Assembly (NCBI RefSeq): GCF_003018235.1 | Contig: NZ_CP027437.1 | From: Escherichia coli | GTDB taxonomy: Bacteria > Pseudomonadota > Gammaproteobacteria > Enterobacterales > Enterobacteriaceae | Reading direction: 5' to 3' (one strand) | Length of the DNA: 64,000 bases | Part shown: positions 54,210 through 54,563 of the stretch, one piece after another | How the letters are laid out: each line of letters begins with the position of its first letter | Numbering within the stretch: position 1 is the first letter of the stretch | Made by a program: the position numbers and the translations under genes | Notes under the pieces: model-generated | Seen by the model: the letters and a program-made list of their open reading frames with translations, nothing else | What the model was told of the DNA's origin: nothing | Database searches by the model: none

Positions 54210-54563
54210 AACGATCTCCTGAAGAAGAGGTAACCGGGTATTCCACACACCCGGAATGTTGTGCACTCACTCTAATTTTCAAAAGTAATCACAACAAGAT
54301 TATTTATGATTAAATGTGACGCGACCCGCAAATAATTCCACATGGATAGAGTGGGATTCACACAACGAAATAATTATTCATTTAAATTCATTTAGTTAAT
54401 TGAATTACACATTCCATTAAATCTTTCCACACTCAAAATAAACAACAACTTCCCTGGCAAAAAGTCAAAAAATGGTCATTGCCTTCCTGAAAAAATAGTG
54501 TCAGGATTAATCAAAACCAATCACATGTTGATTCGAATTGAACTATCATGAAGGTAAATGGCG

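Follow-up and report, generated by a model that had tools for sequence, protein, structure and literature searches.

Proposed promoter, operator and CRP-site architecture of the Escherichia coli ulaA/ulaG spacer, reconstructed by comparative analysis

The ulaA/ulaG locus

The ulaA/ulaG spacer of Escherichia coli occupies positions 54210-54563 of a 64,000-nucleotide stretch of DNA (NCBI RefSeq assembly GCF_003018235.1, contig NZ_CP027437.1), hereafter called the window, and its 354 bp separate the start codons of two divergent genes. This interval is the already known bidirectional promoter and operator region of the L-ascorbate (ula) regulon. Campos, Baldoma, Aguilar and Badia, writing in 2004 (J Bacteriol 186:1720), are said to have characterized the ulaG-ulaABCDEF intergenic regulatory region experimentally, and Garces et al. 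in 2008 reportedly described a switch of UlaR between tetramer and dimer. The element coordinates proposed here are a comparative reconstruction made independently of the 2004 experimental map. Its main elements are two inverted copies of one module, which we read as UlaR operators, one over each of two predicted promoters, and a conserved CRP-like site upstream of ulaA.

The identity of the genes was established with NCBIfam equivalog models. UlaG scored 715 bits against a cut-off of 306, the IIC component UlaA 471 bits against 380, and UlaR, which is encoded downstream of ulaG, 486 bits against 244; UlaB and UlaC were also recognized by models of this type. These matches confirm the genes that an earlier sequence-only reading had named when it described the interval as a divergent ulaA/ulaG spacer, and the coordinates it gave were exact. 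A segment of 601 bp around the spacer was found in 5220 of 5426 complete E. coli genomes, with the flanks annotated as ulaA and ulaG in RefSeq.

The spacer of K-12 MG1655 differs at 5 of the 354 positions (349 identical, 98.6%), and the alignment that includes it spans 391 columns with a mean column identity of 99%. The flanking genes are the same, so that the two strains share one locus; the window carries a non-K-12 allele, and one of its five single-nucleotide polymorphisms falls in the ulaG-side operator module (54527), with no biological difference. Published descriptions of the K-12 region give two divergent promoters, four UlaR operators of shared conserved sequence, full repression that depends on a loop and is helped by IHF, and activation by CRP of ulaABCDEF only.

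The spacer is very AT-rich, as the sequence-only reading had also noted. Its G+C content (GC) is 0.347, compared with 0.513 for the window, which places it in the lowest ~1% of 354-bp segments. The several A-tracts mentioned in that reading do exist, but the number of A/T runs of at least four bases, seven, is what the base composition predicts (5.85 +/- 2.0) and represents no enrichment. None of the Rfam covariance models matched the spacer, and the sole score was a spurious long non-coding RNA at 18.8 bits against a gathering threshold of 60. Because counts of pentamers, A-tracts and consensus matches in the window alone were too weak, the decision between interpretations was taken from conservation.

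Conserved and variable parts of the spacer

Homologous loci were found with a degenerate pattern for a UlaG peptide, with one genome per species, and ulaA and ulaG were then placed in the returned loci by tblastn with the UlaA and UlaG of the window. The resulting spacer set, which comprises 19 Enterobacterales of like divergent arrangement and Silvimonas, was aligned with MAFFT. Spacer lengths in the set range from 351 to 431 bp, and most are 351-367 bp. The alignment contains two conserved blocks, 54266-54340 and 54478-54545, and the AT-rich DNA between them cannot be aligned across genera. The features assigned to the spacer are collected in Table 1.

A within-species comparison of five E. 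coli alleles, including one of the B2 phylogroup, gave a similar picture. It revealed 34 variable positions, all of which lie outside 54266-54321 and 54459-54526. The B2-type allele is only 92-93% identical to the window and occurs in approximately 1100 of 5218 E. coli genomes; sampled carriers are ST131, 'clone D i2' and ATCC 25922, and the window was compared with the loci of ST131 and KC-Dl-1. Its differences are concentrated within the central spacer and within the six bases (N6) between the half-sites of the CRP-like site, and none falls in the promoter and operator blocks.

Table 1. Features of the ulaA/ulaG spacer and its borders in window coordinates; promoter elements, operator modules and protein-binding sites are predictions
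Feature	Position	Strand	Remarks
ulaA start codon	54207..54209 (CAT on plus strand)	-	product MEILYNIF..., phosphotransferase system (PTS) ascorbate IIC component
ulaA Shine-Dalgarno AGGAG	54220..54216	-	
Predicted ulaA 5' leader, ~53 nt	54210..54262	-	from the predicted start; carries inverted repeat CCGGGT/ACCCGG, 54235-54254
ulaA -10 TAGAGT (plus strand ACTCTA)	54269..54274	-	near-invariant in 19 Enterobacterales spacers
ulaA-side UlaR module (predicted)	54278..54320		symmetry centre 54294; ~-16 to -58 of predicted ulaA promoter
ulaA-side boxes	TTCA 54278, ATCA 54288, AGAT 54297, TGAT 54307, TGAC 54317		
Weak ulaA -35 TTGTTG, 17-bp spacer	54292..54297	-	poorly conserved
CRP-like site TGTGAcgcgacCCGCA, TGTGA-N6-CCGCA	54315..54330		22-mer 54312-54333, centre 54322.5
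Central spacer, variable, very AT-rich	54341..54475		nearly all within-E. coli polymorphism; length constrained, sequence free
Candidate IHF core ATTCATTTAGTTA	54386..54398	+	2 mismatches to WATCAR-N4-TTR in E. coli; weak assignment
ulaG -35 TTGCCT	54479..54484	+	TTGC conserved across genera
ulaG extended -10 TGtCAGGAT	54499..54507	+	pattern TGnCAnnAT conserved
ulaG-side UlaR module (predicted)	54500..54542		symmetry centre 54526; ~-14 to +29 of predicted ulaG promoter
ulaG-side boxes	GTCA 54500, ATCA 54510, ATCA 54520, TGAT 54529, TGAA 54539		
ulaG Shine-Dalgarno AAGG	54551-54554	+	
ulaG start codon ATG	54564..54566	+	product L-ascorbate-6-phosphate lactonase

Two inverted modules as putative UlaR operators

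The best-conserved elements of the spacer are two modules in which (A/G)TCA boxes stand at 10-bp intervals and face a central dyad. The geometry is shared between the two sides: once reverse-complemented, 54278-54320 agrees in register with 54500-54542 at 28 of 43 positions. This is the best non-self match in the 64 kb, and the best value among 500 shuffled spacers was 25. The two modules fit the four-box pattern ATCA-N6-ATCA-N5-TGAT-N6-TGAT at 14/16 and 15/16, and a score of 13/16 occurs only once elsewhere in the 64 kb. AATCA/TGATT pentamers occur five times in the spacer, compared with 2.74 expected, an excess too small to be decisive.

Loci that took no part in deriving the four-box pattern contain the array as well, with scores of 14-16/16. 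In Dickeya it neighbours ulaG, and in Aeromonas, Tolumonas, Yersinia, Providencia and three Vibrio species it lies upstream of ulaA. In distant gamma-proteobacteria, the array starts 131-170 bp before the ulaA ATG.

A published UlaR decoy site, TGATTAATCATGAACAATCA (PMC7826281), matches the window best at 54504-54523 (16/20 bases), within the ulaG-side module, and matches the ulaA module more weakly. Papers that used genomic systematic evolution of ligands by exponential enrichment (SELEX) and chromatin immunoprecipitation sequencing (ChIP-seq) give the ulaA/ulaG spacer as the single strong UlaR target. A UlaR tetramer is described on four operator sequences, with L-ascorbate-6-phosphate releasing dimers (PMC3219644).

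From the comparative pattern, we regard the two inverted copies of one 43-bp module with reasonable confidence as putative UlaR operators. The sequence-only reading had held that individual operators could not be assigned, and at this level of confidence the comparison does assign them; the matching of boxes to each published operator is a prediction. Because the modules lie over both predicted promoters, bound UlaR would exclude RNA polymerase at both.

This layout has close counterparts among repressors of sugar metabolism. DeoR (deo) and GlpR (glpD, glpTQ, glpACB) are oligomeric repressors that sense a phosphorylated sugar and use multiple operators and looped repression, and DeoR-family operators are arrays of short half-sites at ~10 bp on one face of the helix, with IHF or bent DNA involved. 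The ula system resembles them in its oligomeric repressor responsive to a sugar phosphate, its box arrays at ~10 bp, its distant operator sets, its looping and the involvement of IHF or bent DNA. It differs from them in the box sequence, (A/G)TCA/TGAT, and in that two inverted operator sets serve divergent promoters ~22 helical turns apart. An FNR site (TTGAT-N4-ATCAA) was considered in view of anaerobic ascorbate fermentation and was rejected; its only matches had two mismatches and overlapped UlaR boxes.

The CRP-like site

The sequence-only reading had pointed to TGTGA (54315-54319) and TCACA (54358-54362) as CRP-like half-sites. Both pentamers are present, together with two TCACA copies that the reading had not listed, at 54289 and 54521. 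The total of four TGTGA/TCACA pentamers compares with 1.44 +/- 1.12 in dinucleotide shuffles, which is a marginal excess (0.045 of shuffles reach the observed number). TGTGA 54315 and TCACA 54358 are 43 bp apart and are therefore not halves of one CRP site. The first belongs to a conserved CRP-like site and was retained, whereas the second was rejected: its partner would be TAGAG (four mismatches), it is absent from the matches with at most three mismatches, and it lies within DNA conserved only in Escherichia.

The retained site, TGTGACGCGACCCGCA (54315-54330), has two core mismatches to TGTGA-N6-TCACA. The site aligned with it has at most two core mismatches in all 19 Enterobacterales spacers, none of which contains a better CRP match, and only one mismatch is present in Tatumella (CCACA), Cedecea (TCGCA), Budvicia (TCCCA) and Edwardsiella ictaluri (TCTCA). 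Across spacers, N6 varies freely while the half-sites stay conserved. The B2 allele, TGTGACGTCGCACGCA, likewise has a changed N6 and ACGCA in place of CCGCA, with TGTGA and CGCA unchanged. Outside the Enterobacterales set, Tolumonas shows the same arrangement, in which a CRP-like TCACA abuts the box array, and in Vibrio a good CRP-like site, TGTGATCTAGTGCTCA, stands ~30-40 bp away from it. A CRP-like site just upstream of the array was also noted in Vibrio, Yersinia and Tolumonas.

In 18 of the 19 spacers, 51 bp separate the centre of the CRP-like site from that of the ulaA -10 hexamer. Measured from the predicted ulaA start, CRP would be centred at about -60.5 to -61.5, which is a class I position. 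The lac P1 promoter, at which CRP is centred at -61.5, is a class I CRP-dependent promoter. The predicted ulaA promoter is like lac P1 in having a single CRP-like site ~51-52 bp upstream of the -10 centre and a poor -35. Unlike lac P1, its promoter-proximal CRP half-site overlaps the outermost repressor box, its second half-site is degenerate (CCGCA or ACGCA), and its start is a predicted one. The site lies ~190 bp from the ulaG start, which fits an action of CRP on ulaA only. Reviews of the 2004 work describe ulaABCDEF as activated by CRP, and ulaA is given among the CRP targets in genomic SELEX.

A different explanation for the conservation of TGTGA(C) at 54315-54320 is that it is kept as a fifth UlaR box (GTCA) and not for CRP, with CRP control exerted elsewhere or indirectly. 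At 10 bp from TGAT 54307, this box keeps the exact phase of the array, and the ulaG module opens with the same GTCA in the in-register match of 28/43. Many genera have TGTGAT here, and its complementary strand, ATCACA, is a perfect UlaR-type box. The downstream half, (A/C/T)C(G/A/C/T)CA, is nonetheless conserved at exactly N6 from TGTGA with six variable bases between, which is a signature of CRP and not the spacing of UlaR boxes. Moreover, the ulaG counterpart is conserved only as TGnCA, for which an extended -10 is the better explanation, the position of TGTGATCTAGTGCTCA off the Vibrio array indicates that CRP sites accompany the array without belonging to it, and ulaA was recovered by CRP SELEX. 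We therefore consider a role in UlaR binding alone to be unlikely. The TGTGAC box may instead be shared by CRP and UlaR or contested between them, and the two proteins may use it in competition.

The two predicted promoters

On the ulaA side, the alignment has a nearly invariant heptamer, CACTCTA, and TAGAGT or TAAAGT stands at the equivalent place beside the box array in three Vibrio species. The poor conservation of the ulaA -35 is expected where a promoter is activator-dependent. From the position of the -10 hexamer, transcription of ulaA would start near 54262. On the ulaG side, the pattern TTGC-N15-GTGnCAnnAT is conserved, the 17-bp spacer length is invariant in 15 of the 19 spacers, and the -10 hexamer always retains A at position 2 and T at position 6. 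These elements predict a ulaG start near 54514. In K-12 numbering (NC_000913.3), the predicted ulaA and ulaG starts correspond to 4419927 and 4419675, and the CRP centre 54322.5 to 4419866.5.

Other hexamer pairs were considered as the active promoters, namely ATCACA-18-TATCAT for ulaG (54520-54549) and, within the AT-rich centre of the spacer, TTAACT-15-(G/A)ATAAT for ulaA (~54397..54371), in which case the conserved TAGAGT and TGnCAnnAT would be something else. ATCACA-18-TATCAT reaches 9/12 matches in a consensus scan, and a paper on SELEX with the RpoD holoenzyme gives exactly these two pairs for the spacer (PMC3946193). The published hexamers are, however, sequence predictions under a broad SELEX peak, and promoter-like sites in the scan number one compared with 1.4 in shuffled sequence. 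TATCAT and the central hexamers are not conserved beyond Escherichia and Citrobacter, and the -10 proposed for ulaA is AATAAT in the window and GATAAT in K-12. In addition, a transcript that began ~8 nt ahead of the ulaG ATG would lack the Shine-Dalgarno sequence. ATCACA-18-TATCAT and TTAACT-15-GATAAT were thus rejected as the main promoters because their hexamers are not conserved, and we judge it quite improbable that they are the active ones.

Spacing of the modules, the proposed loop and a candidate IHF site

The module dyads at 54294 and 54526 are 232 bp apart in the window, which is ~22 helical turns. In 18 of the 19 spacers, the dyad distances fall into three classes of 231-232, 240-243 and 251 bp, or 22.0-22.1, 22.9-23.1 and 23.9 turns of 10.5 bp. 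These distances give a phase concentration R of 0.75-0.8, with a genus-level Rayleigh p of ~4e-4 that is inflated by shared ancestry. A repression loop sensitive to helical phase would be expected to give length classes of this kind, separated by one turn, in DNA that is otherwise free to vary. Published work concludes that full repression requires both operator sets and IHF, and describes derepression of ulaADEFG upon deletion of ihf.

Between the two operator modules, the small conserved island TTAAATTCAtttagTTAA holds the IHF candidate ATTCATTTAGTTA. The aligned candidate is perfect in Escherichia sp. ESNIH1, Pseudescherichia and Budvicia, and has one mismatch in three further genera. The exact consensus WATCAR-N4-TTR has no match in the spacer. 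The best one-mismatch match, at 54521-54533, was set aside; it shares bases with a UlaR box and probably arises from AATCAA.

That the AT-rich spacer is mainly an H-NS silencing patch, with pentamers and A-tracts as by-products of base composition, would agree with a GC of 0.31-0.36, with pentamer and A-tract counts at or near the expectation and with the H-NS mark given for the ulaG/ulaA spacer (PMC3946193), but it leaves the two conserved blocks, the 43-bp module, the fixed CRP geometry and the quantized spacing unexplained and is very improbable, and H-NS on the variable centre would be compatible with the operator and promoter model and could add to it.

Other features near the spacer

The predicted ulaA leader contains a 7-bp hairpin formed by CCGGGT/ACCCGG (window 54231-54257), at about +9 to +27 of the predicted mRNA. 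E. albertii retains it with one compensatory and one wobble change, and several genera have unrelated inverted repeats at this position. A structure-conserved leader hairpin was rejected: none is present in Citrobacter or Edwardsiella hoshinae, the strand that is favored changes from genus to genus, and most folding z-scores exceed -2. At the other border of the spacer, a seven-codon open reading frame (ATG AAG GTA AAT GGC GAT GAG TAA, 54548-54571) runs across the ulaG start codon. Its conservation is limited to Escherichia, Citrobacter and Edwardsiella hoshinae, and it is probably fortuitous.

In the ulaG-ulaR spacer (55629-55735), a GC-rich hairpin, CCGGATAGCG...CGCTATCCGG, is located at 55643-55674. 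AT-rich DNA comes after it, with TTCA, ATCA and AATCA boxes out of 10-bp phase. A weak UlaR peak ahead of ulaR is given in two SELEX papers and implies autoregulation.

In E. coli E138 (NZ_AP022351.1), IS1X4 (locus 1571-2716) takes the place of ulaA-ulaD and of the first part of ulaE. The junction of the deletion falls within the ulaG/ulaA spacer, at about window 54348; ulaG, ulaR and ulaF are kept and the transporter is lost. The lowest GC of the window (down to 0.29) is found at ~35400-36900, at ytfI/ytfJ beside cysQ. This is a variable segment, which is covered to at least 80% in only 1603 of 5418 matching E. coli genomes and carries IS1 in one strain.

Proposed mechanism and significance

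These elements can be combined with the published roles of the three regulators into one model. Two weak sigma-70 promoters would fire outwards, ulaA on the minus strand and ulaG on the plus strand, from starts whose exact positions are predicted. One 43-bp module would overlie each promoter, with its boxes on one face of the helix. UlaR, a DeoR-type repressor, would occupy both modules and thereby mask about -16 to -58 of ulaA and about -14 to +29 of ulaG. By bridging modules that are 232 bp (~22 turns) apart, UlaR would form a repression loop, and the AT-rich central DNA and IHF, at a site whose position is likewise predicted, would aid its bending. L-ascorbate-6-phosphate would release UlaR. 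Cyclic AMP (cAMP)-CRP on TGTGA-N6-CCGCA, ~61 bp upstream of the ulaA start, would activate only ulaABCDEF in the class I manner. The present analysis itself supplies the gene identities, the conservation of the elements, the geometry common to both modules, the constant interval between the CRP site and the -10, and the quantized module spacing. The literature supplies what UlaR, CRP and IHF do, the dependence of repression on a loop, the tetramer-to-dimer change upon induction and the number of four operators. Control of the ascorbate regulon by these three proteins, as the sequence-only reading had described it, is in agreement with that literature. We hold the model as a whole, a bidirectional ula control region with two promoters, UlaR modules, a loop and class I CRP at ulaA, to be very probable.

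Several points weigh against this interpretation. The CRP site is modest when taken alone, as 21 such sites occur in the 64 kb and 0.11 are expected per spacer; CRP-like 16-mers with at most three mismatches number 201 in the whole window, compared with 219 expected. TGTGA(C) stands in 10-bp phase with the UlaR boxes, and its conservation could partly reflect UlaR. The promoter scan and a published prediction (PMC3946193) favor other hexamer pairs. With respect to the loop, Edwardsiella ictaluri is out of phase at 226 bp, and the phasing statistic, being inflated by shared ancestry, cannot fix the period. The IHF candidate has two mismatches in E. coli, 14 spacer positions score as well, and one paper gives the location of the ulaGp IHF site as unknown.

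For a sugar regulon with a specific looped repressor and CRP, such an arrangement is textbook-style and adds little beyond annotation. The gains are that the identity of the locus is confirmed, one CRP half-site is rejected, and the promoters, CRP site and UlaR modules receive proposed coordinates. Independent support for the published looping model also comes from the spacing comparison. More speculatively, the module distance may have evolved across Enterobacterales only in one-turn steps (~22, 23 and 24 turns), with the intervening DNA otherwise changing freely, and UlaR may act partly as an anti-activator that excludes CRP through the outermost of the five module boxes, which it would share with the strong CRP half-site at ulaA and whose ulaG counterpart would double as part of the extended -10. 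We offer this joint proposal tentatively, as one that is possible but has less than an even chance of being correct. The shared outermost box and the one-turn steps may perhaps already be implicit in the primary papers of 2004 and 2008. If true, the one-turn steps in distance would be comparative evidence for a helical-phase dependence of the UlaR-IHF repression loop.

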